From the UHGV virus genome UHGV-0313797: a stretch of DNA of 31,126 bases; one strand, given 5' to 3'. Below the pieces are notes generated by a model. The model did not search any database. It was not told the DNA's origin and saw nothing but the letters and a program-made list of their open reading frames with translations. This DNA comes from a virus. Positions 263 to 21,600 of this stretch are shown here, in pieces. A program made the translations under genes and the position numbers. The stretch's first letter is position 1; every line of letters begins with the position of its first letter.

Positions 263-1981
263 ATGATTTTTAGGGATAGCTTGAGAGTATTACCTTATGG
301 TCGAGTAGATAATGATTTCTTCCAGATAGAAGAAAGACGTTCATGGAATGCAGGGCGATATTATTGGTCTAATAGAAGGATTTTTGGTTATATTGGAATT
401 ACTCAATCCAGTAATAAAGAGCTGAAAGATAAGTCGGGGAGAGAGGGATTCATAAGAAACCAGGCTGCAAGAGAACTGAAAACTATTATATCTAATTTGT
501 TAACTGAACTTGCTGATAGATTTTTTGGTTCACGTTCTGATGACCGTAAAGAGCTTTTAGAACAAGTTAAGCGTGAAAAAGAGTTAAGAAAATCTGCTCA
601 ACAACAAGCTCGAAAATCAACACAAAAAAGTTTTTCAGAAGCTTTGAAGAATCAGACACCAGTTCTTGATGCTTCCTTGGAGGCTGTTAAAAGGCTGAAA
701 ACTAAGCTTGATAAAACTGATGGTTCGTTAGATTTAAACTATCTTAAAATTATAGACAGTGATCTTACAAACTTAGATGCGTTGCGCAGTGAAATTAAAA
801 CGCCTATCAAACCTCCAAAACTTGGAATGTATGAAGAGAAATATAGAGACTACAGAGATAAATTTAATGAGTTCTCTGCGTATATTCTACAAATGAAGTT
901 AGCAATTAATAAACTTGATTCTGAATTAAATAAACTTGAGCCTTCATTGTCAGCGAAAAATCACCTTGAAAAAAATCAAGGTATTATTAATTCTAAACTA
1001 ACTAAGTTTAATAACACGATAGAGGAGAAGATACATTCTCTTTTAAAAAAATGGGCCGATGAAATAAAGGTTGATCGAAGTGATTATTATGCTAAAACTA
1101 TATCAGTTGTTGATTCAATAGATAATGATTCACAAATTGAAAATGTGTTTAATTTGCTCGATAGTTTATATGTTGAGTCAGTTGATACCCTAACTTTCAA
1201 ATATCAATCAATAATAAAAGGTCTCGATAGATTATTTGAAGGTATAAACTTAGATTCAGCATTCTCATTATCTGAAGAAGAACGCTCATATTTTGAAGAA
1301 AAAGCTAAAAGTTTAAACGCGCTTGCACAGTTAGGTATTAGTGTTGAGATAATATCTCATGAACTTGAAGAAATGGATTCTATGGTAACCAGAGGACTAA
1401 ACTCTCTTCCTACTTCTGTAAAAGAACACCCTGGTTTTTCATTGGCGTTAAATGCTCACAGATCGCTTACTCAACAAATACGTTTCTTATCACCTTTGAA
1501 AATATCAGGTTATCAATCCAGGCAGAGAATAACTGGAAAAAATATCATGGATTATGTCCTGAAGTTCTTTGGGGAGCGTTTCGAACGGCAACGAATAACT
1601 ATTGAATTTAGTGAAGAGTTTAAGCAAATCGCAATAACAGATATACCATCAAGGATCTATCCTGTTTTTACTAATATTATCAACAATGCAATGTATTGGG
1701 TCAGTCTGTCAAATAATAGGCTCATAAAGATTGGTTTTGTGAATTCTTTGGTTATCATAGCAAATTCTGGTCCGGCAATTGATACCGATGATATCCCGCG
1801 ACTATTTGAACTATTTTATAGCAAAAGAGCAAATGGACATGGGGTAGGTCTGTATCTATGTCGAGAAAACCTTGCTGTTGCACATCATAAAATATGGTAT
1901 TCAGAACCTGATGAAGGCGATAACTATTTAATAAAAGATGGCGCTAATTTTGTGATCCAGTTCAATGGAGTGGAGTTCTAA
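263..1981 (+). CDS. Histidine-kinase-like protein (coiled-coil N-terminal region, HisKA-like H-box, HATPase_c); possibly 5'-truncated by the IS3 insertion
   Basis: 572-aa ORF. C-terminal part shows an H-box-like ISHELEEMDS, an N-box NIINNAMYW, a G1-like IIANSGPAID and a G2 box GHGVGLYLCRE. The same frame stays open upstream from 263 back to position 137, inside the IS end. Confidence 0.6.
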   Translation: MIFRDSLRVLPYGRVDNDFFQIEERRSWNAGRYYWSNRRIFGYIGITQSSNKELKDKSGREGFIRNQAARELKTIISNLLTELADRFFGSRSDDRKELLEQVKREKELRKSAQQQARKSTQKSFSEALKNQTPVLDASLEAVKRLKTKLDKTDGSLDLNYLKIIDSDLTNLDALRSEIKTPIKPPKLGMYEEKYRDYRDKFNEFSAYILQMKLAINKLDSELNKLEPSLSAKNHLEKNQGIINSKLTKFNNTIEEKIHSLLKKWADEIKVDRSDYYAKTISVVDSIDNDSQIENVFNLLDSLYVESVDTLTFKYQSIIKGLDRLFEGINLDSAFSLSEEERSYFEEKAKSLNALAQLGISVEIISHELEEMDSMVTRGLNSLPTSVKEHPGFSLALNAHRSLTQQIRFLSPLKISGYQSRQRITGKNIMDYVLKFFGERFERQRITIEFSEEFKQIAITDIPSRIYPVFTNIINNAMYWVSLSNNRLIKIGFVNSLVIIANSGPAIDTDDIPRLFELFYSKRANGHGVGLYLCRENLAVAHHKIWYSEPDEGDNYLIKDGANFVIQFNGVEF

Positions 1982-1982
1982 T

Positions 1983-3731
1983 ATGACAGTGGCAAATTAT
2001 AATTCTCTTGTCCAGAAAACTTTCTGCGAAAATGCAATTCGTTCCGTTGTCATGATTGATGACGATTTTCTGACGTATTCTGAATCAATCAGGGCGTTGA
2101 ATAACGAAGTTGATTTAGACTACAACAAAATTGACTCATCTAAACGAGCCGCTACTCTTGAGAGCTTTTTTCAATCTAAAAATATGATTTGTGATGTTGA
2201 CAATGGTTCTGTTAATTTCGATGTGGATCGGATTAGAAAATCAGATCTTATTATTGTAGATTATCATCTTGATAATAATGCACCTGATAAAACACTTAAA
2301 CTATTACAAGATTTGAAAGACTCCGATCATTTAAATATGATTGTAATATATACTAGAGAGAATTTAGAAACGGTTTGGATGCAGATATCATCGACTCTCA
2401 AAGGTGCTCTGGATATCAACAGCTTGATCATTGACTACGATAATGAAGATGTCCAAAGTTATTGGGAAGACGTTGTATTACCGAACTTAAATGATAATGG
2501 TAATAAAGCTCTCACAAGAGATGAAACAATAGCCTATATTAAAGACAGTAAGCCTTGTAGAAGAATTAAAAGATTAATACATGATGATGCTGTGTTGAAG
2601 GATCAAAAGGATAAAAACTTCATTGCAAAAATGATTGCAGAATATGCTGTGTCTAGAAATGCAATTATTTCTAGCAACACATCTGGCAATGTCATTCGGG
2701 GTGATGAAAGCGGAGTAAAATGGATTCAATGTGGTAATATCTTTGTCTCCCTATTTCATAAGGTTCAAGATGATCATGAAAACGATGGAGATAGGATTTG
2801 GCAAACTCTCAATGATTCTCTCATTGAATGGAAACCATCTTATTATCAGTTAATAAAATCTGAAATTCAGAATGCAATCGAAGCTGAGGCTTTATCTTTT
2901 GTAAATCATTTGGCTAACGATCATTACGGTCAAGCTGCGTGGTTAAATGAGATATTAAAATCAGACTCGCCTGATATTAGATGTAGAAATATTGACTTTG
3001 TATTTGGTAATTTATCAGAAGAGCTTTATCAAAGACTTAAAAATAATAATACGCTGGATGAATTTATCAAAAGTGTTTTTGATAGCTATTCAAATGAATA
3101 CGCTAACAGCGGAGTTGCTGCATTGCTCCAATATTGCTCTTCAAAAATGGATCTGCCATCAAATAATGATACTTATCACGAAATGTATCATGCTTTAAAT
3201 ATGAATTTGTCTTCAAAGAATTTTGAAGATGGTCATATTTCTACTGGCACTATTTTCTTTGATACAGAGTCGAACAAATGGTATTTATGTGTATCTGCGG
3301 CATGTGATTTGGTTCCTACTCAGGGTAACGACCCTCACCATGTAAGATTAAGTCCGCACAGGCTCATTAAAGTTCTGGAGCTTTTTAACGCCAGTCAGAG
3401 TAAAGCATTGCCATTTGCTGAACATTCGAAATATATATATGTAATGCATAAAAATCAAAGAAAATATCTCTCTATTTTCGAAGGGGATAAAACGCTTCCT
3501 GTTGTTGATTATATGGTGGTGTTGAATCATGGAACAACAGTTGATGGCGAAGAAAAAAATATTATTTCTGCCGTGTTTTTAAGTAATATGGATGGCAACG
3601 TGCAAAATGTTCCTGTCCGACTCAAACTTAAATCTCAACTGAGAACTGGTTATGCAGAAAGATATCAGGCTATAGCGTCTCAGTATAGCTCAAGGATTGG
3701 TGTGGATTATGTATCAATGATGCTACCATAA
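1983..3731 (+). CDS. Receiver (REC)-like domain protein with a large uncharacterized C-terminal region
   Basis: ORF 1965..3731; preferred start is the ATG at 1983, 7 nt after a GGAG. N-terminus has VVMIDDD (acidic pair), then IIVDYHLD (candidate phospho-acceptor Asp) and IVIYT (conserved Thr), a receiver-like pattern with longer spacing than canonical. Residues 150-582 have no motif I recognise. Immediately follows the kinase-like gene. Confidence 0.5.
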   Translation: MTVANYNSLVQKTFCENAIRSVVMIDDDFLTYSESIRALNNEVDLDYNKIDSSKRAATLESFFQSKNMICDVDNGSVNFDVDRIRKSDLIIVDYHLDNNAPDKTLKLLQDLKDSDHLNMIVIYTRENLETVWMQISSTLKGALDINSLIIDYDNEDVQSYWEDVVLPNLNDNGNKALTRDETIAYIKDSKPCRRIKRLIHDDAVLKDQKDKNFIAKMIAEYAVSRNAIISSNTSGNVIRGDESGVKWIQCGNIFVSLFHKVQDDHENDGDRIWQTLNDSLIEWKPSYYQLIKSEIQNAIEAEALSFVNHLANDHYGQAAWLNEILKSDSPDIRCRNIDFVFGNLSEELYQRLKNNNTLDEFIKSVFDSYSNEYANSGVAALLQYCSSKMDLPSNNDTYHEMYHALNMNLSSKNFEDGHISTGTIFFDTESNKWYLCVSAACDLVPTQGNDPHHVRLSPHRLIKVLELFNASQSKALPFAEHSKYIYVMHKNQRKYLSIFEGDKTLPVVDYMVVLNHGTTVDGEEKNIISAVFLSNMDGNVQNVPVRLKLKSQLRTGYAERYQAIASQYSSRIGVDYVSMMLP

Positions 3732-4257: not shown

Positions 4258-5487
4258 TTAGGCTACCAGAGCATTTGATCTTTGAGCTTGAAGGTAATCA
4301 CTCCACCATTGCATCAAACTCTGTCGCTCTATCAGATATTCTGCACGATTGTATGCTGCGATAATTTCATCTTTTTTCGAGTGGGCAAGCGCTGCCTCAA
4401 GAACTTCAGCTCTGAATTTACCAGACTCCTCTGCCGCTGTTCGTGCAATAGAACGCATACCGTGAGCTACAAGCTCGCCTCCGAACCCCATTCGGATGAT
4501 AGCTGCGTTGGCTGTTTGTTCATGCATATGATTAAGAGGCGCTTTTATGCTGGGGAAAACCCATTCTCTATGCCCACTTATTGATTTCATTAATTCAAGG
4601 ATGCGCAAAGCTTCTTTACTCAAAGGAACTTTGTGAAGCTTTTTCATTTTCATGAAATCAGCAGGAATGTTCCAAATGCTGTTGGTTGTATCAATATCAG
4701 ACCACCTTGCGCGAACGGCTTCACCCGGACGAACCCATGTCAACAATTGCCATTCAATTAGCATACGTGTTTCCAACCGGATTGACGCATTCGTCAAAGA
4801 TTCCATAAACCTTGGCAATTCGCTTGGGGGAAGGGCAGGCATATTTTGCTTTTTTGGTTTACTGAATCTTTGACCAAGGTTGTCAGCCGGGTTGAACTCA
4901 ATAAGTTCTTCAGTAGCTGCCCACCGGAAGATTTCATTCAGACGTGAAATGATACGGCGTAGAGTTTCCAATACGCCTCGTTGCTCAATAGGATCAAGGT
5001 GTTGTTTTAAGAGCTTAGGTCGGATCTCATTGATAGGGACATTACCCAGACCGGGAAAGACATTTCTCTCTAAGCTGCGCCAGATGTCTGCTGCATGGTC
5101 TTGTGAGATACCTGATGTCTTTACCTTCTCATCTAACCATTTCCGCGCTACGGCTTGGAGAGTGTGCTCAGTAGCACTCTTTAATGCCTTCGCCTTATCG
5201 TTGTTATGGATTTGGGGATCAACACCATTTGCCAGAAAGGAGAGATATTCATCACGTAAGGCTCTGGCTCTTGCAAGGGTAAGGTGAGGATATGTCCCAA
5301 GGCTCATTTTGGTTCTTTTCTTGCTCACTGGTACTGCATACCTGAAATACCAATTTTTCTTGCCTCCTTTCGCCAAAGGAGCGATTCGTAGAATCAGACC
5401 ATCACCGTCAAACAAGTTGATTTCTTTATCGGCTGGCTTGGTGCTTTTGATTTCAGTGTCAGTGAGCTTCTTAGCGATTTTTGCCAT
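4258..5487 (-). CDS. Tyrosine recombinase, P4-type integrase family
   Basis: ORF 4258..5529 trimmed to the ATG preceded by GGAGGG (MAKIAKKLTDTEIKS...). N-terminus resembles the P4-integrase N-terminal domain (LTDTEIKSTKPADKE...LFDGDGLILRI); catalytic-domain-like C-terminus (HGMRSIARTAAEE, AHS...AAYNRAEY). Sits directly downstream of a tmRNA 3' end copy, as CP4-57 intA does at ssrA. Confidence 0.85.
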   Translation of the reverse strand: MAKIAKKLTDTEIKSTKPADKEINLFDGDGLILRIAPLAKGGKKNWYFRYAVPVSKKRTKMSLGTYPHLTLARARALRDEYLSFLANGVDPQIHNNDKAKALKSATEHTLQAVARKWLDEKVKTSGISQDHAADIWRSLERNVFPGLGNVPINEIRPKLLKQHLDPIEQRGVLETLRRIISRLNEIFRWAATEELIEFNPADNLGQRFSKPKKQNMPALPPSELPRFMESLTNASIRLETRMLIEWQLLTWVRPGEAVRARWSDIDTTNSIWNIPADFMKMKKLHKVPLSKEALRILELMKSISGHREWVFPSIKAPLNHMHEQTANAAIIRMGFGGELVAHGMRSIARTAAEESGKFRAEVLEAALAHSKKDEIIAAYNRAEYLIERQSLMQWWSDYLQAQRSNALVA

Positions 5488-5652
5488 TTTGGGACCCTCG
5501 GTTTTTGGACCCTTCTTAGTGGGTCCCATTCAGGGTGCCATAACTCGTAGTTCTCAGCAATTCTCACTGGACGACAATAGACGTAAAAAAGCCCGCAGAG
5601 CTTGTGCTGTGTGGGCTTAGTAGACTTCATTGAACTTCAAACAACTAAAAAG

Positions 5653-5752: not shown

Positions 5753-6844
5753 TTAGACTGTGTTAGGCATTTTTACGTCGTTAAACTTCTTTGTCGCCAT
5801 TTTGCCGCCACTGGAAGCTTTTATAACGTTAGGCTTTGTATATTTATCCCAGTGAGGAGAATAAATCGGACAATCAAGTGTAATATATTGATCAAAAAGA
5901 AATCTAAAGTCTGTTTCATATATATAATTAATTATATGTTCATACGGAGCTAATTCGGCACCATAAATTATCGTTTTTATTTTTCTTGTTAGATATATAC
6001 TTGCCTCAACGAATTCAAGAAAAGCATTTTCTTCGTGAGCAAAAGTAATAATACTGTATTCATTGATCGATATTTTATATCTTGCCCGCATAATACTGTC
6101 GATACAGAGCTTTTCAAAAATCATGGCTGTTTTGTTAGAAACAGAATTTATTATTCTAAGGTACTCCAGTGGTTTATTTTCTGGGGCCAGTTTCCTTGGT
6201 TTTAGTGCGTTATCTATATCTCTAAGTAATACTTCTATTTCTTCTAGGAACTTGCTGCTTGGTTCGAAGTTAGATAGGCTGTGTGGGGCTGAGTTGGGGT
6301 ATATTTTTTTATAGAGCAAGTAAGGATTTGTAATTTTAACTTGATCGGTAGTTGCTATTTTTTCATTATCAATTTCCTTGGACGAAATGATGCTTCCATC
6401 TTTGTTAGATAGATTTAAAATTGTGAAAGTAGATAAGTGGTTTATTTTTTCGATGAAGTTTTTTTCATGAGCCAAATATCTGTCAACGGCATTTTTGCTA
6501 TCAGCTGCTTGTATTTGTGCTTCGGTTTGAATTGTGCGATGAATATTGTTTACTATCGATGCGAGAGGAACAGAACTTGCTAGTAGCAATAAAGGAAACT
6601 TGCTGATCTCATAAAATCTAAAATATCCGTGAGCAGTGAGGACAGGTGTTTTTCCACTCCATGCAAAGTAACCAAAGTAAAAAAATGAAAAAACAGGAAG
6701 TAAAATCGATAACCAAAATAATTTTTGGCGGTATAGATTTCTTTTGTCTAACTTGTACCATCTCCTCCAAATGGAAATGATTAAAATTAATATAATTATT
6801 GTTGCATAAATATAAATGTATATATGGTCAGGATATGTTTTCAT
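5753..6844 (-). CDS. Membrane-anchored hypothetical protein; cargo gene translationally coupled to the prophage integrase
   Basis: 363-aa ORF; its ATG overlaps the int stop codon (ATGA overlap at 6841-6844). N-terminal predicted TM segments (ATIIILILIISIW, LFWLSILLPVFSFFYFGYFAW, FPLLLLASSVPLASIV) followed by about 270 soluble residues with no recognised motif. Visibly AT-rich compared with neighbouring phage genes. Confidence 0.6.
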   Translation of the reverse strand: MKTYPDHIYIYIYATIIILILIISIWRRWYKLDKRNLYRQKLFWLSILLPVFSFFYFGYFAWSGKTPVLTAHGYFRFYEISKFPLLLLASSVPLASIVNNIHRTIQTEAQIQAADSKNAVDRYLAHEKNFIEKINHLSTFTILNLSNKDGSIISSKEIDNEKIATTDQVKITNPYLLYKKIYPNSAPHSLSNFEPSSKFLEEIEVLLRDIDNALKPRKLAPENKPLEYLRIINSVSNKTAMIFEKLCIDSIMRARYKISINEYSIITFAHEENAFLEFVEASIYLTRKIKTIIYGAELAPYEHIINYIYETDFRFLFDQYITLDCPIYSPHWDKYTKPNVIKASSGGKMATKKFNDVKMPNTV

Positions 6845-7863
6845 ACGTGATTTATACTATTTAGTGGGTTTTTGGTTACTGCATCTTCAAGATGTTCAGG
6901 GGAAAAATGTGCATATACCATGGTCATCTTGATATCTGAGTGACCCAATATATCTCTCAATACTAGGATATTTCCGCCGTTCATCATAAAATGGCTGGCG
7001 AATGTATGGCGCAACACGTGAGTGCATTGGCCATCAGGCAGTTCGATACCGGCCCGTTTTACTGCACGCTCAAAGGCTTTTCTGCATGGTGTGAATAACT
7101 TCCCTCTGTTTTTGGGTAGCTCGTTGTACAGATCCTGAGATATCGGTACGGTGCGGTTTTTTTTACCCTTTGTCTTTGTATAGGTAATCCGGTATTTCGA
7201 TAGTTGATGTCCCTGCAGGTTTTCAGCTTCACTCCAACGTGCACCAGTTGCTAGGCATATTTTTGCAATCATCAGCAGACTGGGGCTTTGAGAATCAGCA
7301 CAGGCATCTAGCAGACGTTTAATTTCTTCCGGAGTCAAGAACGCCAGTTCACCTTCAGTAATTTTAAATGTTGGAAGCCCGGCAAGAGGGTTGGGGGCTG
7401 ACCAGTGGCCCAGCTTTTTCAGTGTACCAAAAACCGATGATAGGTTGCGTTGTTCAAGATTTACCGTGCGGGGCTTAACGGGCGACATTAGCGTGCCATC
7501 TTCATTTCGCACTTCACCTTTTAGCCGTGCTTCGCGGTATTTCGTAAAGTCACCGGCAGTCAGCTCTGAAGCGATGGGATCGCCTAGACCATTACAGATA
7601 ATTCTAAGTTTCGCCATGAGGCGCTTGGGGTCTGCGAGTGTTTGACCATATAGGGAATACCACAGCTCAATTAATTCTGATAGGCGTCTGCGATCTTCCT
7701 TTTCCCCCAACCATGGTTTTTTGTTCACTTCTTCCATTGTGAAGCTTTCAAAAGCAATGGCTTCGCCTTTTGTAGCAAATTGCTTACGTACGCGCTTGCC
7801 ATTGCGTCCATTGGGATAGCACTCACACAACCATTTACCGTTTGGCTGTTTTCTGACAGTCAT
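6841..7863 (-). CDS. int: P2-type prophage integrase (tyrosine recombinase)
   Basis: 340 aa; C-terminal catalytic region HVLRHTFASHFMMNGGNILVLRDILGHSDIKMTMVYAHF is typical of P2/186 integrases; size and position next to the repressor gene match the P2-family layout. Confidence 0.9.
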   Translation of the reverse strand: MTVRKQPNGKWLCECYPNGRNGKRVRKQFATKGEAIAFESFTMEEVNKKPWLGEKEDRRRLSELIELWYSLYGQTLADPKRLMAKLRIICNGLGDPIASELTAGDFTKYREARLKGEVRNEDGTLMSPVKPRTVNLEQRNLSSVFGTLKKLGHWSAPNPLAGLPTFKITEGELAFLTPEEIKRLLDACADSQSPSLLMIAKICLATGARWSEAENLQGHQLSKYRITYTKTKGKKNRTVPISQDLYNELPKNRGKLFTPCRKAFERAVKRAGIELPDGQCTHVLRHTFASHFMMNGGNILVLRDILGHSDIKMTMVYAHFSPEHLEDAVTKNPLNSINHV

Positions 7864-7865
7864 GT

Positions 7866-8498
7866 TTAGATACTCTTTATTACTTTGACTGCGCGCCCAA
7901 TAATTTCCACATCATCAGCAGAACACTCGAAAGACGCTTCATCTTGATTTACTACAATCTTATTGCCGGGAATCCGCATGATTTTTGCAATAATAATCAT
8001 TCCATCAATATTGATTAGCCAGAATCCATTGCTGACTTGTTTAACTGATTTATCGATGAGATAACAATCAGTTGGGGTTTCTAAGAACATCGATTCTTCA
8101 TAATGTGCAGGTAATATGCTGTGGTCTAGGAAAATATCTTCATCAATACTGAGTTTTCCATTCTCTAAGGTTCCTTTAGGAATAGATGGAGTTATGAGTT
8201 TGGATAGTGGTTTAATTGCTTGTTTGTTCTCATTATGAGATCTTTTCTCAGGCTCACATCCTCCTTTCATGCTTCCCTGGCCTGTAGCTAACCAAAGCAA
8301 CGAAACACCGGTTTCTAGTGCGCACTGAATTATCCAGTCAGCAGGAAAACTGTCGCGTAACACTCTGTTTGCCATAGTGCTTTTTGAGACATTCAGGTGC
8401 TCGCTTAATGCCTGCTTAGTTGTGAATCCATAAGCCTCAAGCAGCCTCTCAATAGCTGCCTTGCCTCCCGTATCGGAACCCATTCTGATGTTTAACAT
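7866..8498 (-). CDS. cI: Immunity repressor, phage 186 CI-like
   Basis: ORF 7866..8546 trimmed to the ATG preceded by GGAGA (MLNIRMGSD...). N-terminal HTH-like region (CALETGVSLLWLATGQG) resembles 186 CI; divergent from apl and upstream of int as in 186. Confidence 0.75.
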   Translation of the reverse strand: MLNIRMGSDTGGKAAIERLLEAYGFTTKQALSEHLNVSKSTMANRVLRDSFPADWIIQCALETGVSLLWLATGQGSMKGGCEPEKRSHNENKQAIKPLSKLITPSIPKGTLENGKLSIDEDIFLDHSILPAHYEESMFLETPTDCYLIDKSVKQVSNGFWLINIDGMIIIAKIMRIPGNKIVVNQDEASFECSADDVEIIGRAVKVIKSI

Positions 8499-8619
8499 TG
8501 GTAATCTCCATTTGAAAATCTTGAGTCGAGATCGTAATGTCTTCATGTCTCTTGATGTGAGAGTTTAAGAGACGGACTAAAACGAACTAACACGCACACA
8601 AAGTAAGAGATACTGCACT
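8499..8619. promoter_or_regulatory. Lysis-lysogeny switch region (expected face-to-face lytic and lysogenic promoters with operators)
   Basis: 121-bp intergenic region between the divergent cI and apl genes; call is by position and analogy to the 186/P2 switch. Individual promoter hexamers were not resolved. Confidence 0.4.
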
Positions 8620-10695: not shown

Positions 10696-10994
10696 CAAGG
10701 GCAGTGCGTATCCATCAATTAAAAATTGCACCTAAGTATTTCAACGCTGTGGTTGCAGGTCAAAAGACGGCTGAACTTCGTAAAGACGATCGTGGCTATA
10801 AAGTTGGTGATGTTCTTTCTCTTTGCGAATGGAAGCATGGCGTATTTACGGGTAGGGAATGGGCCGCTGTTATCTCTCATGTGCTTCCGGTTAATGACGT
10901 CATGGCAGTTTCAGAACAATGGGTGATGCTGTCAATTCGCCCATTAACCCCATTAGAAGCTTTAGGATATGTTATTGCCGGAGGTGCTGTATGA
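10692..10994 (+). CDS. Small ASCH/DUF3850-like protein
   Basis: ORF 10632..10994 trimmed to the ATG after GGAGG ([41 protein letters not shown]...); motif arrangement recalls DUF3850/ASCH proteins often found beside phage methylases. Domain assignment is from memory. Confidence 0.5.
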
Positions 10995-11848
10995 GCACCA
11001 TCCTGAAATGGGCGGGAAATAAAACCGCCATTATGCCAGAACTGAAAAAACACCTTCCAGCTGGCCCGCGACTGGTTGAACCTTTCGCGGGTTCCTGTGC
11101 GGTGATGATGGAGACGGATTATCCAAGCTATCTGGTTGCGGATATTAATCCTGATTTAATCAACCTCTATAAAAAGGTTGCCGCTGATTGTGAATCGTTT
11201 ATATCTCGCGCCAGAGTTTTATTTGAGAACGCAAACAGGGAGGTAGCTTATTACAACATAAGGCAGGAGTTTAATTACTCAACTGAAATTACTGATTTCA
11301 TGAAAGCGGTATATTTCCTGTATCTCAATCGTCACGGTTACCGTGGTTTATGTCGCTATAACAAGAGCGGGCATTTCAATATTCCCTACGGTAATTATAA
11401 AAATCCGTATTTCCCTGAAAAAGAAATTCGCGCATTTGCAGAAAAAGCCCAGCGGGCAACGTTTATCTGCGCCAGCTTTGATGAAACGCTGGCGATGTTG
11501 AAGGCGGGGGATGTGGTGTATTGCGATCCGCCTTATGACGGTACGTTTTCCGGCTATCACACTGATGGTTTCACTGAAGATGACCAGTATCACCTGGCAT
11601 CCGTTCTTGAACATCGATCATCTGAAGGACATCCGGTCATTGTTTCTAACAGTGACACATCCCTGATTCGTTCGCTGTATCGCAATTTTACTCACCACTA
11701 TATCAAGGTAAAACGCAGCATCGGTGTGGCAGCTGGCGAGTGTAAATCAGCAACAGAAATCATCGCTGTTTCCGGGCCGCGCTGCTGGGTGGGATTTGAT
11801 CCTTCGCGTGGCGTGGATAGTTCTGCCGTGTACGGAGTGCGTGCATGA
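10991..11848 (+). CDS. dam: DNA adenine methyltransferase, Dam family
   Basis: ORF 10919..11848 trimmed to the ATG after [16 protein letters not shown]..., [28 protein letters not shown] and catalytic VYCDPPY align closely with E. coli Dam. Confidence 0.9.
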
Positions 11849-14259
11849 GCCATGCTGATATGAACAACTGCAGCGGCTTTAACGAGGTCGCAGCAGCATT
11901 CTCATGGAGCAGCCCGAAAAAGGCCATTAACCCTTATCTGGACCCGGCGGAAGTTGCGCCGGTTTCTGCGCTTTCAAACCTGATCACTCTGTACGCTGCC
12001 GATAACGAGCAGGAACAGCTGCGCCGTGAGGCGCTGAGTGATCAGGTCTGGGAGCGTTATTTCTTTAATGAATCCCGTGATCCTGTCCAGCGCGAAATCG
12101 AGCAGGATAAGCTCATTAGTCGGGCAAAGCTGGCGCATGAGCAGCAGCGTTTTAATCCGGATATGGTCATTCTGGCGGACGTCAACGCCCAGCCTTCCCA
12201 TATCAGCAAGCCGCTGATGCAACGTATTGAATACTTCAGCAGCCTGGGCAGGCCAAAGGCTTATTCCCGCTATTTGCGTGAGACGATTAAGCCATGTCTG
12301 GAACGACTGGAGCATGTACGCGAGAGTCAGCTATCCACTTCTTTTCGCTTTATGGCAAGCCATGAAGGGCTGGACGGCCTGCTGATCCTGCCTGAAATGA
12401 GTCAGGATCAGGTGAAGCGCCTGTCTACCCTTGTTGCCGCGCATATGAGCATGTGCCTTGATGCAGCTTGTGGTGATTTGTATGCCACCGATGACGTTAA
12501 GCCAGAAGAAATCCGCAAGACATGGGAAAAGGTGGCAGCGGAAACCCTGCGTCTGGATGTAATCCCTCCTGCGTTTGAGCAACTCCGTCGGAAAAGAAAC
12601 CGCCGTAAACCCGTGCCCTATGAACTCATTCCGGGTTCGCTGGCGCGTATGTTGTGCGCCGACTGGTGGTATCGGAAATTATGGAAGATGCGTTGCGAAT
12701 GGCGGGAAGAGCAGTTGCGTGCTGTCTGCCTGGTCAGCAAAAAAGCATCTCCCTATGTCAGCTATGAAGCCGTGATGCATAAACGTGAGCAGCGCCGTAA
12801 GTCGCTGGAGTTTTTCCGTTCTCATGAACTGGTGAACGAAGACGGCGACACGCTGGACATGGAGGATGTGGTAAACGCCAGCAGCAGCAACCCGGCGCAT
12901 CGCCGCAATGAGATGATGGCCTGTGTTAAAGGTCTGGAGCTTATCGCGGAAATGCGCGGTGACTGCGCCGTTTTCTACACCATCACCTGTCCGTCACGTT
13001 TCCATTCCACGCTCAATAACGGCAGACCAAACCCGACCTGGACAAACGCGACGGTAAGACAAAGCAGCGATTATCTGGTCGGCATGTTTGCTGCATTTCG
13101 TAAGGCGATGCACAAAGCCGGGTTGCGCTGGTATGGCGTGCGGGTGGCTGAGCCGCATCATGACGGCACAGTTCACTGGCACCTGTTGTGTTTCATGCGC
13201 AAAAAAGACCGCCGTGCCATCACTGCATTACTGCGTAAGTTTGCCATCCGTGAAGACCGCGAGGAGCTGGGCAATAACACTGGGCCGCGCTTTAAGTCTG
13301 AGTTGATTAACCCGCGCAAAGGAACGCCAACAAGCTACATCGCGAAATACATCAGTAAGAACATTGACGGGCGTGGTCTGGCTGGCGAGATCAGCAAGGA
13401 AACGGGGAAATCCCTGCGTGATAATGCTGAATACGTTAATGCCTGGGCGTCTCTGCATCGTGTTCAGCAATTCCGCTTCTTTGGCATTCCGGGGCGTCAG
13501 GCTTACCGTGAACTGCGATTGCTGGCTGGTCAGGCGGCAAGGCAACAGGGGGACAAAAAAGCAGGTGCGCCGGTACTGGATAACCCACGCCTTGATGCCA
13601 TCCTGGCTGCTGCTGATGCTGGTTGTTTTGCCACCTACATCATGAAGCAGGGCGGCGTACTGGTTCCCCGCAAATATCACCTCATCAGAACCGCTTATGA
13701 AATCAACGAAGAGCCGACCGCCTATGGCGATCACGGCATTCGTATTTATGGCATCTGGTCACCTATTGCAGAGGGCAAGATCTGCACTCATGCCGTGAAG
13801 TGGAAAATGGTTCGTAAGGCCGTTGATGTTCAGGAGGCGGCAGCTGACCAGGGCGCTTGCGCCCCTTGGACTCGTGGCAATAACTGTCCCCTTGCTGAAA
13901 ATTTGAACCAACAGGAGAAAAACAAATCAGCTGATGGGGATACCAGAACGGATATCACCCGCATGGATGACAAAGAGTTGCACGAATACCTGCACAGTAT
14001 GAGCAAAAAAGAGCGCCGGGAACTGGTAGAAAGGTTACGCCTGGTTAAACCGAAACGGCGTAGAGACTACAAACAGCGAATTACAGACCATCAACGACAG
14101 CAGCTCGTCTATGAACTGAAATCCAGAGGATTTGATGGCAGCGAGAAAGAGGTCGATTTACTCCTTCGCGGCGGCAGTATTCCGTCAGGAGCAGGCCTGC
14201 GTATCTTCTATCGGAACCAGCGTTTGCAGGAAGATGATAAGTGGCGGAACCTGTATTAA
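11845..14259 (+). CDS. A: Replication initiation endonuclease, P2 gpA family (rolling-circle initiator)
   Basis: 804 aa, last gene of the early operon; contains [13 protein letters not shown] (HUH-type metal-binding motif) and downstream tyrosines (SYIAKYISK); position before the cargo locus matches P2/186 gene A. Confidence 0.85.
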
Positions 14260-15186: not shown

Positions 15187-16155
15187 TTATTTATAATATG
15201 CTGACTTCAAAACCACTCGTCTTTCAACCTGCTGTGATAGCATTACCGCGTTAGTCCAATCTTTTGGATACCTTATTTCTTCTATAACACGAATATAAGC
15301 ACATACTTTATTTTTTCCTTCTCCTTTGGCATAAGTAACCTCTAGATTATTAAATTTCAATAAGTGCTCTCTTCTTTGGTAAGTAAAACAGCCGTAATCA
15401 CGGACATCAGAAGAAGTAATAGCATGAGTTGAAGGAAACCGAACTAGTAAATTTCTCAAGTAGGGAATAATGTCCAAACTCGTTGCTTTGTTTTCTTCTC
15501 TGCGACTCTTTCTGAACATATGTCTCCAACCCAGCCGTGTAAGCTCGATTTTCCCAAGCACCGGAGATGTGATTTCTTTCTGTTCAGAATAACGTTTTTT
15601 AACAAACGCTCGCCGATTATTAAGTAGTGAGTTTCTTCTTCTTACATGGATTCCTTTTGCTCCAGTTTCACCTGCACGTATCATGGACATACAGCGAGCC
15701 AGGTCAAACCGTGTAGCCGGAGTGATTAAGTGATATTCTCCATAAGTTTGGTTTTTAAGGGTAGTGTTTGGATGTATATAGGCCCAAAATGCTTTACGAT
15801 TAGTTCTGTCAACCCAAACGACACATATATGGTGAGTTGTCCTTTTGGCTGCTTTTTTTGCGGCCGAATTTAATACAAAACCTTTCTCTAATAAATGACC
15901 ATAAGTTGCCCCTGATTTAACTTGCGACAATATAAGCATTCTTTCTTTTGATGCCCATGGATGTTCGAAGGATAATATTAAATCTATTTTTGAATTGTCG
16001 TCTTCCCTGGAACCCCAGTGCCCCTCTCCTCTACAAGCAAGAATGAATTGACTCATTGCATAAGATTCGGCGTCACTGCCGTTAACTGAGTTAAACTGTC
16101 TTGTTTCTAGCACAGTTGGTATTGGTCGTGATGCAAGTAAACTGAAAGATCCCAC
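15187..16155 (-). CDS. Uncharacterized cargo protein in the A-Q variable locus; possible PD-(D/E)xK-like N-terminal region
   Basis: 322-aa ORF starting at a GTG 8 nt downstream of GGAGAG. AT-rich. N-terminal region has GEGHWGSREDDNSKIDLILSFEHP...ERMLILSQVKSG, a D...(Q)xK pattern compatible with a restriction-endonuclease-like fold; a strongly basic segment (IHVRRRNSLLNNRRAFVKKRYSEQKE) follows. No confident family assignment. Confidence 0.55.
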   Translation of the reverse strand: MGSFSLLASRPIPTVLETRQFNSVNGSDAESYAMSQFILACRGEGHWGSREDDNSKIDLILSFEHPWASKERMLILSQVKSGATYGHLLEKGFVLNSAAKKAAKRTTHHICVVWVDRTNRKAFWAYIHPNTTLKNQTYGEYHLITPATRFDLARCMSMIRAGETGAKGIHVRRRNSLLNNRRAFVKKRYSEQKEITSPVLGKIELTRLGWRHMFRKSRREENKATSLDIIPYLRNLLVRFPSTHAITSSDVRDYGCFTYQRREHLLKFNNLEVTYAKGEGKNKVCAYIRVIEEIRYPKDWTNAVMLSQQVERRVVLKSAYYK

Positions 16156-16592: not shown

Positions 16593-16611
16593 GGCGTGGC
16601 GGGGATACGAG
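16593..16611. other. Candidate cos site (cohesive-end sequence of the P2/186-like genome)
   Basis: GGCGTGGCGGGGATACGAG shares its first 13 nt with the 19-nt cohesive end of phage 186 (GGCGTGGCGGGGAAAGCAT, from memory) and lies in the A-Q interval where P2-like prophages carry cos. Confidence 0.45.
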
Positions 16612-16719
16612 CGCGCGCTGTATGCCTGAAGTGGCTAAAATAGTATCTGTCATAGGTACAACTTAGTGTAGTATCATCCATATAATCCATTGAAATATAA
16701 TCGACTCTCATTAGAGGTG

Positions 16720-17718
16720 ATGATGAACGGAATCTGGTACGAAAACACTCATACACGCATTCCTAATTTTGAAACAACAGTACATCAAAAGCACAAATTC
16801 GGTTACGCTTATGAAACAACAAGTCATTTTGTGCATCTGTATGGGCGTGACGTGGGATTTAATGTAATATCAGTTGGGTTAACTGTTATTGAGCAACGAA
16901 GTGGAACTCTCAATGATTGGGTTCGGAGAGTATTTGGGGCTCAGAACATATCTCCTTTAGATAATGAAATTGGACATGTAACTAGGGGAGTGTGGCGGCC
17001 ATCCTTATATTATGTCAATGATACAGAAACAGCATTAGGTATCGATGAGTTTGAAAAAAGAGCAACAGAGCAAGCTCTAAGAGTTTTGATAGAAAAACTC
17101 GATGATATTTTTCTATATGTAGAACCAAGTGCCCATGGTTTGATTTCTTACAGTCATAAATGTAGAGAGCTATTAATTCTTGCTTGTACTGAGGTTGAAA
17201 ATCAATGGGTGTCAATCATTGGTAATTCGAATTTATCTCGTTCAAATGGTCGATACTCCACAAATGATTATGTGAAATTATTAGATAAGTGTTATTTGTC
17301 TGAATATAAAATTCAATATTTGAATTATGACGGATTAAGGCATTTCAAACCTTTTGATGGGTGGAATGCAAGTACCCCTACAACATCTTTGTCATGGTAT
17401 AATGCATATAATAAAACTAAACATGATAGATCAGGAGCATTCCACTTTTCCACTTTAGAAAATGTAATGGATGCAGTTGCTGCTTGTGTTGTAATGTACT
17501 GTGTAAAATATGGCCCGTTTAGCTTATTGGAAGCCAATACGTCTCTATCAACGATCGTTAATCAAAACTTTTCAATTTCATTAGATAATAGCAATCCAGC
17601 AAGTTATTACATTCCTGAAATTGAACTTCCACCGGATACAAGAACGGATTTATTAATTTATGATTGTTATCGAGAAAACCATAATAAAGCATGGGTCACT
17701 GATCCCCTAGTGCTCTAA
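16720..17718 (+). CDS. Uncharacterized cargo protein with a HEPN-like Rx4H motif; candidate abortive-infection effector
   Basis: ORF 16690..17718 trimmed to the ATG after AGAGGTG (MMNGIWYENTH...). AT-rich. C-terminal region has YNKTKHDRSGAFHFSTLENVMDAVAAC; RSGAFH fits the R-x4-H signature of HEPN RNase domains. Single-motif evidence only. Confidence 0.55.
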   Translation: MMNGIWYENTHTRIPNFETTVHQKHKFGYAYETTSHFVHLYGRDVGFNVISVGLTVIEQRSGTLNDWVRRVFGAQNISPLDNEIGHVTRGVWRPSLYYVNDTETALGIDEFEKRATEQALRVLIEKLDDIFLYVEPSAHGLISYSHKCRELLILACTEVENQWVSIIGNSNLSRSNGRYSTNDYVKLLDKCYLSEYKIQYLNYDGLRHFKPFDGWNASTPTTSLSWYNAYNKTKHDRSGAFHFSTLENVMDAVAACVVMYCVKYGPFSLLEANTSLSTIVNQNFSISLDNSNPASYYIPEIELPPDTRTDLLIYDCYRENHNKAWVTDPLVL

Positions 17719-17728
17719 TTTCCTGCTA

Positions 17729-17758
17729 AAGGGAGCTTTTAATTATAAACGCTCCCTT
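17729..17758. terminator. Hairpin between convergent genes (possible bidirectional terminator)
   Basis: Perfect 8-bp inverted repeat AAGGGAGC / GCTCCCTT around a 14-nt AT-rich loop, located between the stops at 17718 (+) and 17775 (-); no clear U-tract. Confidence 0.35.
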
Positions 17759-17774
17759 CGGTTGTCGCTATTTA

Positions 17775-18748
17775 TTATATATCAATAGAGTTTTGAAATT
17801 TTAATAACTGCCATCTTGTTAATAGTGGTTTTATTGCTATGTTGTGTTGGGTATTTATTTTTAAACCTTCGAATTTCGAATATCCATTTTCCAAGGCTTC
17901 CACTGAAAAATGAATGGTTTTTGTTATCGGGTTTATAGCACAAAGATTTAGGTTATATAAAGTATGAATGTCACTTCTGAGCAATAATCCATTGCTAATA
18001 TGATTGTGACTATCGTTTCGATATACATTAATGTGAGCAGCATCAAGAATATCAACAAGCTTACAGCCCATAACCGCACAAGTAGGATTTGATTTTAATA
18101 GCTGGTCGCGAAATGTTTTTTGCCCACTTCGTTGTTTTATTTGCCGTTCTACAATTTGCCGTTGATCTTCACCCATTAAAGTGGGGGTGTCTTTATCAGC
18201 TTCGCTGGCGTTGAGCTCCAGAATAATAGTATGTTGGGCGGTAAGCAAAGCAACAGCCCATTGATAGTTAACTTCTTGGATGGACATTTGCCCATTGTAG
18301 CGTGGAGTTTCATCTATAAATTGTGACATTGTAATATTGGATAATTTACGGTACTGGTTGCCGCAGTATGCTATAAATTCTTTAGCTGGCTCAAAAACCA
18401 CTCTGGGTTCATCAAATTCATGGCCATTATCACAACGCCACTCTGATTTTATAGTTTTCCTTTGAAGAATTTTTTTGCTTTGCAGTCTAGGTTAATACAT
18501 TTGTTACGCTTCTTATTAATGCTCTGTGTTTCTAATTTTTCAATAACAGATATACCTAAAATATTTTCTCTGTTGGTAATAATAATAATATCACCGTCTT
18601 TTACATTTTTGTGGTTCGCTACAAAACTGTCATAGCGATAGAAAACTGATGAGTCATCGGGATAACTATCATTTCCCCAGTATCTAAGATCGTCTTTCTC
18701 AATTGCCTTAAAAAAAACCATACTTGCTGTACCATGAACTTTTCCCAC
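17775..18748 (-). pseudogene. HNH-family endonuclease (HNH_2-like) split by a frameshift in a homopolymer tract
   Basis: Two consecutive minus-strand ORFs (18449..18748 and 17775..18401) overlap in different frames around a run of 7 A (minus strand) at 18470-18476; one extra A would fuse them into about 320 aa. Downstream part has CAVMGCKLVDILDAAHINVYRNDSHNHISNGLLLRSDIHTLYNLN (C..C...AHI....SNGL.L...H..Y), the signature of McrA-like HNH nucleases. Confidence 0.6.
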
Positions 18749-18805: not shown

Positions 18806-19837
18806 TCATCCCAAAGAATATGGCTCAAATCGCAAAATTTTTTGTTCTAACCAGTCATTTACTTCACGCATCCTTTTTTGCAACGGTAATAATTCATTTC
18901 GCACAAACACATTTGCCGCCTTCTCCACATCCCCAAACCCCCCAACATTGCTAGGCATTATCCCCATCATTTGTGGTGGCACACGATGCGCTGCCATCAT
19001 GTCATCCCGACTCACGTTCTTGATGTTAAGAAATTCATCCTTCGCTGCGACTTCTGATAGCGGGATAATCTGAAGCCCGTCTTTTTTGCCGTTAGGCGAG
19101 TACATAAACAGGTTGCGGAAGTTACCCGGACCTTTGGCACTTTTCATCGCGTTGCGGAGGTTGTTTACATCCTCCTGGTTCTGCGCGGCGTCGGTCATGT
19201 ACATGATGAAGCCTGCATGACTGCCGTTGATGTAATACTTACGGCGGAACAGCGTGGCGGACTCATTGAGCAGGGCGGACGGAATGGCAGAAAGATAGCC
19301 GGGCAGGCCGTAGATCTCTTGGTTAATGTCCGGTTCCATCAGATGAAAAATGCTGCCTTTCGTGAACTGATACGGCTGGGTTGTCATACCGTATTGCACA
19401 AACCAGTAGGTATTCAGGTCTAACCCGCGTCGGGTGTATTTTGCCAGAGCAGGCTCAAGGGCGATAACTTCACCGAAGCGGTTCGTGCGTTTCTCCAGGT
19501 AGGCGTTACCAAATACCAGATAGTCCTGCACAAAACGTGAAAAAGCCTGCTGGCTGAGCAGCGGGTGAGGGATGTAGGTACTGGTCAGAATGTTGCATTT
19601 CACCGCAATTGGTGAACTGTGATGCACGGCGGCGCGGAAGGTGCGCGCCAGTCCGTCAAAACTCACTGGCGGCTCATACCAGCGATCTGTCTGTACGCAT
19701 TCCACATAGTCCAGTAGTTCACGGCGGTCCAGAACCGGAACGGGATCGCCGAAGCTGAATGCTTCGGCTGAAGTCTGGTTTTTATGCTGGGTCTGTTTCG
19801 TCGCCGCAGCGAGGTTCTTCTTACTCTTTCCCATCAA
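18806..19837 (-). CDS. Q: Portal protein, P2 gpQ family
   Basis: 343 aa (P2 gpQ is about 344 aa); start overlaps the stop of the upstream terminase gene; position and orientation as in P2. Confidence 0.9.
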   Translation of the reverse strand: MMGKSKKNLAAATKQTQHKNQTSAEAFSFGDPVPVLDRRELLDYVECVQTDRWYEPPVSFDGLARTFRAAVHHSSPIAVKCNILTSTYIPHPLLSQQAFSRFVQDYLVFGNAYLEKRTNRFGEVIALEPALAKYTRRGLDLNTYWFVQYGMTTQPYQFTKGSIFHLMEPDINQEIYGLPGYLSAIPSALLNESATLFRRKYYINGSHAGFIMYMTDAAQNQEDVNNLRNAMKSAKGPGNFRNLFMYSPNGKKDGLQIIPLSEVAAKDEFLNIKNVSRDDMMAAHRVPPQMMGIMPSNVGGFGDVEKAANVFVRNELLPLQKRMREVNDWLEQKILRFEPYSLG

Positions 19838-21600
19838 AAAATCTCCACAATATTGCTGGTATTGGCGGACTCGCCCTGCAGCGGTTCGTTAAACAGTGCG
19901 TGCATTGTTGCCCAGGCCAGATCGGCATGGCTGGCTTCTTCGCTGCGGCTGGCTTCATAGGTCGGGCGGTTGCCGCTGGCGGTGGTGGCGCGACGGATTG
20001 CCATGAATGACTGCGCAATGTCGGTGTGCCCGGCGTCAAACTCAAGACGGCGGTGGCTGATAATGTCGTAGGCCTTGAGTACCAGGGCGTTTTTAACGTT
20101 GGGGTTGTAGACAAACTCCCGGACGGCAGGAAAAAACGCTTTCACGTTCTCGTAAACCCCGTGACCAACGCCGGTTGAGTCGATGCCGATATAGGTCACG
20201 TTGTACTGTTCGGTCAGTTTTTTGATGGCGTCAGCCTGGGCGCGAAAGTCCATTCCGCGCCACTGGTGACGCTCAAGAATGCGGAACTTACCGCCTGGCA
20301 CGGCTGGCGGTGCCACCACCACGCATCCGGCGCTGTCGCCGTTCTGCGTACCTTTTGCCGGGTCATAACCGATCCACACTTCGCGCCAGCCAAACGGGCG
20401 CAGGGCCAGTGCATGAAAGTCGGTCCAGACTTCCCAGCTGTCCACCATGCACGCCTGCAATTCGCTGAGCGGGAACACGGACGCGAGATCGTCCACGAAC
20501 TCGCACATCAGCAGGTTCTGGTATTCGTCAGGGCTGTACTCCATGCGCAACTGGTCAAGGTCGAACAGGTTACAGCCGCCGCGCACCGCATCTTCCACGG
20601 TGACTATCTGGCGGTATTGCCCGTCTGCGCACAGCAGGCCGGGGGCCAGATTGCTGTGGGACAGGTCGATGTCCACCTTGTCAGCTTTGTTGCGCCCACG
20701 GTTGAACAGCGCACCGGACCAGAACGGATAAGCACTGTGGGTCAGACTGGATGGTGTGGAAAAATAGGTCTGCCGCCATTTCTTGTGAATAGCCATACCG
20801 GAAGCCACTTTGCGTAGCTCCTGAAATTTCGGTATCCAGAAATATTCATCCAGATACAGGTTGCCGTGATAACTCTGGGCCGTGCGGGCATTGGTGCCGA
20901 GGAAGTAAAGCGTGGCCCCGTTAGGAAGTACCATCGGATCGCCTTTCAGCTCCACCTCCACTTCTTTGGCGAAGTCGATGATGTACTGCTTAAAGACGTG
21001 GGCCTGTGCCTTACTGGCGGAAAGGAAAATCTGGTTACGCCCGGTAAGCAGGGCGTCAATCAGGGCTTCACGGGCAAAGTAAAAGGTCGCGCCGATCTGG
21101 CGTGACTTCAGCAGGTTGCGGATGCGGTTGGTTTTTCCAGCTTCCCACCAGTGGCGCTGGTAGTTGAACATGGAGGAATGGAAGATTTCTTCCAGTTTCT
21201 CAATCTGTTCATCGGTGAAGACATTTTTTTCCGGCTGACGGCGCGGGCCTTTGTTGCGGTTGGCGACGTTAGGATTTAAGTCGGCTTCGTTGCCGCCATT
21301 GTTAAACTTGCCGATCCGCGCGTGGCGCTCAGACTGGCGCGCCAGCAGGTCAATCTCTTTGAAATCTTTCCCTTCTTTGTGCTCCTTCATAATGAGCTGG
21401 CAGTAGCGTGCGGCGGTGGTGAGCTGCATCTGATCCAGCGGCCCATAGTCACCCCACTTGTCGCGTTTTTTCCAGCTGTGAACGGTTGCAACTTTCTCGC
21501 CCAGCATTTCAGCAATGCGGGCTACGCGGTATCCCTGAAAGTACAGCAGCATGGCCTGCCGACGGGGATCGAGATCTGCGGGTGTCAGTGTGGTGTTCAT
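19834..21600 (-). CDS. P: Terminase large (ATPase) subunit, P2 gpP family
   Basis: 588 aa (P2 gpP is about 590 aa); divergent from the scaffold gene across the late promoter region, as in P2. Confidence 0.9.
   Translation of the reverse strand: MNTTLTPADLDPRRQAMLLYFQGYRVARIAEMLGEKVATVHSWKKRDKWGDYGPLDQMQLTTAARYCQLIMKEHKEGKDFKEIDLLARQSERHARIGKFNNGGNEADLNPNVANRNKGPRRQPEKNVFTDEQIEKLEEIFHSSMFNYQRHWWEAGKTNRIRNLLKSRQIGATFYFAREALIDALLTGRNQIFLSASKAQAHVFKQYIIDFAKEVEVELKGDPMVLPNGATLYFLGTNARTAQSYHGNLYLDEYFWIPKFQELRKVASGMAIHKKWRQTYFSTPSSLTHSAYPFWSGALFNRGRNKADKVDIDLSHSNLAPGLLCADGQYRQIVTVEDAVRGGCNLFDLDQLRMEYSPDEYQNLLMCEFVDDLASVFPLSELQACMVDSWEVWTDFHALALRPFGWREVWIGYDPAKGTQNGDSAGCVVVAPPAVPGGKFRILERHQWRGMDFRAQADAIKKLTEQYNVTYIGIDSTGVGHGVYENVKAFFPAVREFVYNPNVKNALVLKAYDIISHRRLEFDAGHTDIAQSFMAIRRATTASGNRPTYEASRSEEASHADLAWATMHALFNEPLQGESANTSNIVEIF

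Follow-up and report, generated by a model that had tools for sequence, protein, structure and literature searches.

The 31,126-nt window analyzed here (UHGV virus genome UHGV-0313797) is a segment of an Escherichia coli chromosome that carries a P2-like (Peduoviridae) prophage. Near its middle lies an open reading frame (ORF; positions 16720–17718, plus strand), here called the target gene, whose product a first-pass annotation had described as an uncharacterized cargo protein with an R-x4-H motif like that of HEPN RNases. We find that the target ORF is real, intact and under purifying selection. Its product belongs to a widespread family of a single architecture, spread by mobile elements, with a HEPN-like core and a signature of its own. 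Its members are carried in prophage hotspots, integrative and conjugative elements (ICEs) and type I restriction-modification (R-M) operons. Moderate support from the predicted structure suggests that the conserved core probably has a HEPN-like fold. The reading we favor, tentatively, is that the target may be a stand-alone anti-phage defense protein, carried as cargo of the cos-proximal hotspot in the prophage.

The ORF containing the literal string RSGAFH was confirmed, with 332 amino acids (aa) encoded on the plus strand. The ratio of nonsynonymous to synonymous substitution rates (dN/dS) was 0.14–0.15 for the target versus its orthologues in Salmonella phage SEN8 and Pseudescherichia. The same 999-nt coding sequence is annotated 'hypothetical protein' in E. 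coli C21, FORC_081 and phage SEN8 (RefSeq/GenBank), and the protein is present in identical form on 21 E. coli contigs, every one labelled 'hypothetical'. The first-pass annotation held that the gene stands alone behind its own ribosome-binding site. That part stands: GAGGTG precedes the start, and there is no co-oriented neighbor, with the cos site upstream and a hairpin followed by a convergent gene downstream. The −10 element proposed along with it is less secure. Two TATAAT hexamers are present, the second of them conserved in SEN8, and no full sigma-70-like promoter was detected on the plus strand. Because most homologues begin 'MNG', the second ATG may be the true start. The hairpin, located between the convergent target and HNH endonuclease genes, is a probable bidirectional terminator.

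Relatives of the target are numerous. A word-indexed search gave 811 matches, nearly all of 330–333 aa, and an exhaustive profile search gave 2,606 clusters at 50% identity (E <= 1e-3), 677 of them below 1e-30. A scan of one genome per species found 161 relatives, which represent at least nine phyla: Proteobacteria, Bacteroidota, Planctomycetota, Bacillota, Cyanobacteria, Verrucomicrobiota, Spirochaetota, Actinomycetota and Patescibacteria. Under all public names the members are 'hypothetical', and the only PHROG matched by the target, along its whole length, is phrog_19461 ('unknown function'). The names 'DUF936' and 'YcaO', attached to two cluster members, had no support in Pfam scans and were set aside. 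Literature searches by accession, PHROG id and topic found no earlier characterization of the family.

Conservation is centered on a core of residues ~110–270. In the divergent alignment, P136, E160, Y184, L193, W215, W226, Y227, Y230, K234, H235 and Y297 are invariant, and R93, R149, E158, T181, P211, F212, P220, T221, N231 and R237 are nearly so. W226, Y227, Y230, K234 and H235 are kept in 32/32 distant and 34/34 close homologues; in the distant set, E160 is retained by all 32 members, N231 by 31, E158 by 30 and R237 by 28. The family signature reads W-Y-x-x-Y-N-x-x-K-H-x-R and is non-canonical. Judged from these alignments, the residues under selection are K234-H235 and R237, with E160, Y230 and N231. 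The N-terminal ~95 residues are well conserved in the close clade only, where they include many invariant His, Glu and Tyr, and are not alignable in distant members.

The motif emphasized earlier falls within KHDRSGAFHFSTLENVMDAVAAC (residues 234–256), with RSGAFH running from R237 (nt 17428–17430) to H242 (nt 17443–17445). The string is there, though ~70% along the protein and not in the C-terminal region to which it had been assigned. Its use as a HEPN active-site signature did not survive comparison with shuffled and homologous sequences. When the target protein was shuffled with its composition kept, 83% of the shuffles had at least one R-x4-6-H and 45% at least one R-x4-H. Among 34 homologues of ≥48% identity, position 242 is occupied by S (17), N (6), H (4), Y (2), R (2) or Q, C and D (1 each), and H242 is kept in 3 of the 32 divergent members. 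Because R-x4-H is common in shuffles and H242 is variable, the motif is uninformative, and on these comparisons R237-x4-H242 is a chance-level match rather than evidence. As a practical caution, most proteins of comparable length should be expected to contain a short R-x4-6-H match through chance.

HEPN domains are defined by an often kinked helix 4, an R-x4-6-H that ends helix 3, with a polar residue after the R, and an acidic residue in helix 2 (PMC3710099); an insert between helices 2 and 3 (H2 and H3) is also characteristic (PMC3710099, section 7). We predicted the structure of the target with AlphaFold2 from the 34-sequence alignment (predicted local distance difference test score, 92.4; predicted template modeling score, 0.91). 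In the model, the core is a four-helix up-down bundle, similar in structure to solved HEPN domains, with a 57-residue H2–H3 insert (residues 168–224). Helix 2 (146–167) bears SHKxRELLILACTEVEN, with R149, E158 and invariant E160, and so provides the conserved acidic residues looked for in this helix. The helix 3 region reads W226-Y227-x-x-Y230-N231-x-x-K234-H235-x-R237 and also holds RSGAFH (nt 17428–17445). The invariant His ending helix 3 is H235, and N231, at −4 from it, fits the usual polar residue after R. Invariant polar residues cluster in helix 2 (E160, E158 and R149) and at the end of helix 3 (Y230, N231, K234 and H235, then R237). The first-pass annotation had asked whether its motif would sit on such a bundle. 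It does, in a short helix between helices 3 and 4, yet the canonical motif is not conserved. A PD-(D/E)xK reading of 'EP(D)...TEVEN' was considered and rejected, because the residues in question are alpha-helical and are not followed by a Lys.

Two registers with respect to the HEPN motif are possible. In register A, Y230-N231-K-T-K234-H235 would occupy the R-x4-H slot, with Y in place of R, N at +1, and residues 237–264 forming the kinked helix 4. In register B, R237 would be the motif Arg, the motif His would have been lost, and H235 would serve as an alternative His, an arrangement that has been proposed for AbiV and AF0298. From the modeled core we infer a possible HEPN-type RNase activity.

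The genomic settings of relatives are consistent with a defense role. In 8 of 79 genome loci (L064, L073–L078 and L080; hosts, gut Alphaproteobacteria, Elusimicrobia and Oxalobacter), a ~312-aa homologue lies inside a type I R-M operon. The order is hsdM-hsdS-X-hsdR, where X is the homologue, and the frames overlap by 1–4 nt, with stop and start codons overlapping. HsdM, HsdS and HsdR, as well as a YgjP-like gene, were confirmed by Pfam in these operons. A homologue with 60% identity, from E. coli, Vibrio and Salmonella, is flanked in an integrative island by a NACHT ATPase on one side and a Gabija-like OLD-TOPRIM/UvrD pair on the other. Other homologues are carried by an ICE of Pectobacterium, adjoin an AAA_15/21 ATPase gene in Acinetobacter, or neighbor an MmeI-type R-M gene of a conjugative element. 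For several distant members, the metagenomic contigs retrieved were too short to inform on context. Neighbor clustering and bulk Pfam and PADLOC scans revealed no conserved partner gene in the 79 loci, except type I R-M in one clade. Members of the family are placed in defense hotspots and islands with no obligatory partner, the pattern seen for single-protein defense systems. Because a conserved partner gene is missing, the data are consistent with a one-protein system, comparable to HepS (see below).

Several individual loci of relatives have additional features. In one of the homologue-bearing R-M operons (L073, 2454–3965), a SieB-like superinfection-exclusion protein (166 aa) and a 328-aa protein are encoded between hsdM and hsdS; this operon looks like a multi-gene 'restriction-linked' defense cluster. 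In locus L084, a 107-aa XRE-type helix-turn-helix gene (6670–6993) is followed after a 7-nt gap by the distant member P0165 (287 aa); its product could be a regulator, or a partner resembling an antitoxin, restricted to that clade. In E. coli CS18F (L003, 7149–8498; NZ_CP074576), a degraded island that contains integrase fragments carries a 74%-identical homologue directly upstream of a gene for a DUF4145 protein of 449 aa. We take DUF4145 to be HEPN-related by Pfam clan membership. No sequence relation between this homologue and the DUF4145 protein was detected, and hhalign of the target family against the latter gave a probability of 0.1.

The window copy itself occupies a place where defense genes are common. 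The gpA–gpQ interval of the prophage is a 4.5-kb stretch of AT-rich DNA with 33–43% GC (33–39% for the cargo), versus 53–59% in the phage backbone. By this contrast the target gene has a foreign composition, and the low GC relative to the backbone argues for a foreign origin of the cargo. The 19-mer that marks cos is identical to positions 1–19 of SEN8, the annotated 'putative cos site'. The target ORF starts 109 nt past cos, inside the gpA-cos-gpQ region, and six P2-like viral contigs carry this 19-mer 127 nt ahead of the start of the homologous gene. The cos-proximal locus of P2 is a hotspot of anti-phage systems, with experimental support (Rousset et al., PMC9122126); in Table S5 of PMC9122126, the arrangement of target plus HNH is entered only as 'hypothetical ... 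HNH_2'.

The two halves of this hotspot are not tied to each other. Cargo on the left (gpA–cos) varies independently: the window has a 322-aa orphan, C21 an RNase A-like protein together with CdiI, and FORC_081 a P-loop NTPase. The orphan (15187–16155, minus strand) has faint matches to DUF4365 and LPD3 (E 0.04–0.1) and no PADLOC or NCBIfam match. It is 99–100% identical in other E. coli strains, which have different cos–gpQ cargo; in strain SW071614, for example, it is accompanied on the right by a hypothetical protein plus HIRAN. The pairing of one left orphan with differing right cargo indicates that the hotspot halves recombine independently around cos.

A mechanism can be sketched for the stand-alone defense protein that we favor. 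The core would be a divergent HEPN domain in which the canonical R-x4-6-H has been re-wired, and two protomers would pair their sites in a dimer. A phage cue would elicit metal-independent cleavage of RNA (tRNA, rRNA or mRNA), performed by H235 with K234, R237 and E160, and this cleavage would arrest the infected cell (abortive infection). In this scheme the HEPN-like core would be the effector, with sensing or regulation assigned to the variable N-terminal domain. A broader and more doubtful proposal is that one-protein immune effectors of a so far unrecognized kind have arisen from the HEPN fold, with a re-wired center and a helix-2 Glu set in an aromatic pocket; their chemistry or substrate could differ from that of classical HEPN RNases, and swappable N-terminal domains could determine which trigger is recognized.

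Several results weigh against this reading. What argues for HEPN homology is a moderate structural match, and no conserved R-x4-6-H ends helix 3. Pfam, NCBIfam and PADLOC yielded no match for the target protein and no family for the 32 divergent members, the sole exception being an AbiD match in one of the 32 (E 0.022). The first-pass annotation had proposed a hidden Markov model (HMM) search for HEPN/Abi families, and this came out negative, with no HEPN or Abi HMM matching any member apart from that AbiD match. Profiles built from the close and the divergent alignments retrieved nothing from the PDB, and Foldseek against the PDB gave no significant match. For a direct comparison with HepT/DUF86, a DUF86 alignment was derived from the SO_3166 HepT sequence (5yep_B, verified identical) and set against both family alignments with hhalign; this genuine HepT/DUF86 profile matched the target family with a probability of 0.1–0.2. 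In these searches, no established HEPN family resembled the target or its relatives at the profile or HMM level. The putative placement of H235 or R237 in a HEPN active site comes from secondary-structure register, and the invariant aromatics Y184, W215, W226, Y227, Y230 and Y297 could equally form a small-molecule pocket. Finally, the association of relatives with defense islands comes from sampled loci.

Other explanations differ from this one mainly in what the conserved residues do. In the version given by the first-pass annotation, the target is a canonical HEPN RNase with R237 and H242 as the catalytic pair. The motif is literally present, in a short helix between helices 3 and 4, near the usual HEPN motif site (PMC3710099); R237 is near-invariant, and H242 is found in the four closest enterobacterial sequences. 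Yet position 242 is S, N, E, R, Y, D, G or another residue in 30/34 close and 29/32 distant homologues, R-x4-6-H arises in most shuffles, and no HEPN HMM matches, all of which make this version highly improbable. Since H242 varies in the family while K234-H235 is kept in 100%, H242 is not likely to be catalytic. The annotation's guess of a HEPN-like fold and a defense role has been partly borne out by independent data; its choice of catalytic His was wrong. Alternatively, the protein may be HEPN-like and non-catalytic, its aromatic pocket binding RNA or a nucleotide-like ligand, so that it acts as a sensor, blocker or regulator, for instance by blocking translation or, in the operon-embedded clade, by modulating the adjacent type I R-M enzyme. 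We consider this unlikely. Invariant H, K and E, together with R and N that are nearly so, are more usual in a catalytic site than in one that only binds, and most members, the target included, stand alone without a partner to regulate.

It is rather unlikely, too, that the target is a defense or conflict enzyme of different chemistry (a DNase, an enzyme of nucleotide or nicotinamide adenine dinucleotide degradation, or one of nucleic-acid modification) on a superficially HEPN-like helical scaffold, with the insert, the R93 motif and Y297 contributing to the site. Consistent with such an enzyme, the fold match is moderate and its support structural, conserved residues extend beyond the bundle (R93, T181, Y184, W215 and Y297), and the N-terminal domain, with its invariant His, Glu and Tyr in the close clade, has no known fold. 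A non-defense moron in the variable cos–Q slot, serving lysogenic conversion, anti-defense or phage fitness, appears improbable. Partition systems and cytolethal distending toxin are examples of non-defense cargo in the P2 hotspot, and only about one third of the loci tested by Rousset et al. protected against their phage panel (PMC9122126). Nor was any experimental record found for the family. Against the moron, repeated embedding in type I R-M operons and neighbors that are Gabija-like, NACHT, MmeI-type or AAA_15/21, on ICEs and islands across unrelated phyla, amount to a defense-gene signature rather than one of host-specific conversion factors, and an anti-defense gene would not be expected to be co-transcribed within R-M operons.

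Table 1. Coordinates of the target gene, its predicted regions and other prophage features in the window
Feature	Position	Strand	Remarks
Integrase (P2-type)	6841–7863	−	
CI repressor	7866–8546	−	
Dam-type methylase	10919–11848	+	
Replication endonuclease gpA	11845–14259	+	
P2-type cos site, GGCGTGGCGGGGATACGAG	16593–16611		Divides left (gpA–cos) from right (cos–gpQ) cargo
Two TATAAT hexamers	16681–86 and 16696–701	+	Exact matches; possible −10, without a good −35
Shine–Dalgarno-like GAGGTG	16714–16719	+	Abuts ATG ATG; invariant in SEN8, C21 and FORC_081
Target coding sequence	16720–17718	+	332 aa (331 aa from ATG 16723); phrog_19461
Predicted N-terminal alpha/beta domain	16720–17013	+	Residues 1 to ~98; ends in conserved W92-R93-P94; fold without known match
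Helices 1 and 2 of predicted HEPN-like bundle	17014–17220	+	Residues 99–167; helices 110–131 and 146–167
H2–H3 insert, 57 residues	17221–17391	+	Residues 168–224 (AlphaFold2 model)
Helix 3 and short helix	17392–17448	+	Residues 225–243 (225–235; 237–243); putative active-site region
Helix 4 of predicted bundle	17455–17511	+	Residues 246–264
C-terminal mixed region	17512–17715	+	Residues 265–332; invariant Y297
Stable hairpin	17725–17762	.	dG −16.8 kcal/mol, z −3.7; 0/200 shuffles fold as well
HNH_2 endonuclease gene (phrog_21425)	17775–18748	−	Frameshift-split into 208-aa and 99-aa ORFs
Portal gpQ	18806–19837	−	
Terminase gpP	19834–21600	−	

Each of the P2-like loci examined has the target gene and the HNH gene as a single convergent block between cos and gpQ; these loci are the window, C21, FORC_081, SEN8, a Pseudescherichia genome, seven IMG/VR contigs and the short contig L056, which holds only the 3′ end of the target homologue plus the HNH gene. 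The HNH gene is intact (315–319 aa) in SEN8, Pseudescherichia and three IMG/VR contigs, and frameshifted in the E. coli lineage, window included. Alignment with the intact SEN8 and Pseudescherichia genes traced the disruption to an A8-to-A7 deletion plus a 2-nt indel near the start; the homopolymer site could reflect decay or phase variation. The product matches weakly a model for a 'phosphorothioated DNA-binding restriction endonuclease'. HNH was considered as an obligatory partner and rejected, being confined to P2-like phages and a pseudogene in the window. Because the HNH gene is frameshifted while the target is intact, the target appears independent of it. In our proposal, HNH would be a separate modification-dependent restriction-type nuclease, inactivated in the window and not required for target function.

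Elsewhere in the window, a 363-aa ORF (5753–6844, minus strand) overlaps the 3′ end of the integrase gene by 4 nt. It has no Pfam match and may be int-proximal prophage cargo. Further left, a pair of genes with overlapping frames (263–3731, plus strand) encodes a histidine-kinase-like protein with HATPase_c and HEF_HK domains (572 aa) and a Response_reg_2 protein (588 aa). The pair is followed by a P4-type integrase gene (Arm-DNA-bind_3/Phage_int_M; 4258–5529, minus strand). Together, the kinase-like pair and this integrase make up an integrative island of their own, left of the P2-like prophage and distinct from it, whose domains are typical for conflict systems.

If the target is indeed a stand-alone defense protein with a divergent HEPN core, a large family that is now invisible to annotation would join the anti-phage catalogue. 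About 19% of P2-like hotspots have no recognizable defense genes (PMC13586616), and the family would help explain part of these. It would also offer a natural test of HEPN active-site re-wiring, with the canonical Arg or His displaced under strong constraint.

Among characterized proteins, HepS offers one comparison: it is the 'HEPN solo' of the Gifsy-1 prophage, an abortive-infection anticodon nuclease (Sargen et al., Nature 2026, PMC13043305). HepS has <250 aa and a canonical R100-x4-H105, whereas the target has 332 aa, extra N- and C-terminal regions, a 57-aa insert and no conserved R-x4-6-H; no sequence similarity between the two was detected. Precedents for a variant motif exist in Parep1/8, c2405, AbiV and AF0298 (PMC3710099). 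AbiV has been proven to be an RNase, and within it 'neither R or H is strictly conserved' (bioRxiv 10.1101/2024.05.05.592566). The AbiV and AF0298-type variants (PDB 9bj5 and 2hsb) differ from the target in several respects. The Pfam HEPN_AbiV model does not match the target. Moreover, the alternative His of AbiV comes from the H2–H3 insert, whereas H235 of the target lies at the end of helix 3, two residues before R237, and AbiV requires an antitoxin RNA (abiV2), to which nothing comparable was seen at the target gene. Parep1/8 and c2405 have kept the H and lost the R (Anantharaman et al. 2013), the same deviation that the target would show if register A holds, in which case K234, R237 and R149 could replace the lost Arg. 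These two have different partner domains (AbiTii at the N terminus of c2405) and no profile match to the target family.

HepT/DUF86 proteins of MNT-HEPN type VII toxin–antitoxin systems (PDB 8xdj, 7ae2 and 5yep) differ from the target as well. The target is 2.5 times larger and has no R-x4-H-x-Y, and no MNT nucleotidyltransferase was found among its window neighbors or the 25 most frequent Pfam families of 142 neighbors; the target is thus not part of a HepT/MntA-type pair. With PrrC, RloC and Abi2 (AbiD/AbiF), the likeness is one of genomic position. The target has no ABC-ATPase domain, which PrrC and RloC carry at the N terminus, and no Abi_2 Pfam match, and linkage to R-M is seen in the distant clade only, not for the window copy. 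However, the slot in hsdM-hsdS-X-hsdR is one in which PrrC, RloC, Abi2 and further HEPN proteins are classically found (PMC3710099), and distant members of the target family fill the same type I operon slot, with frames overlapping. If the favored reading is correct, insertion in R-M operons would represent a second example, beside PrrC and Abi2, of an RNA-level back-up to DNA restriction.

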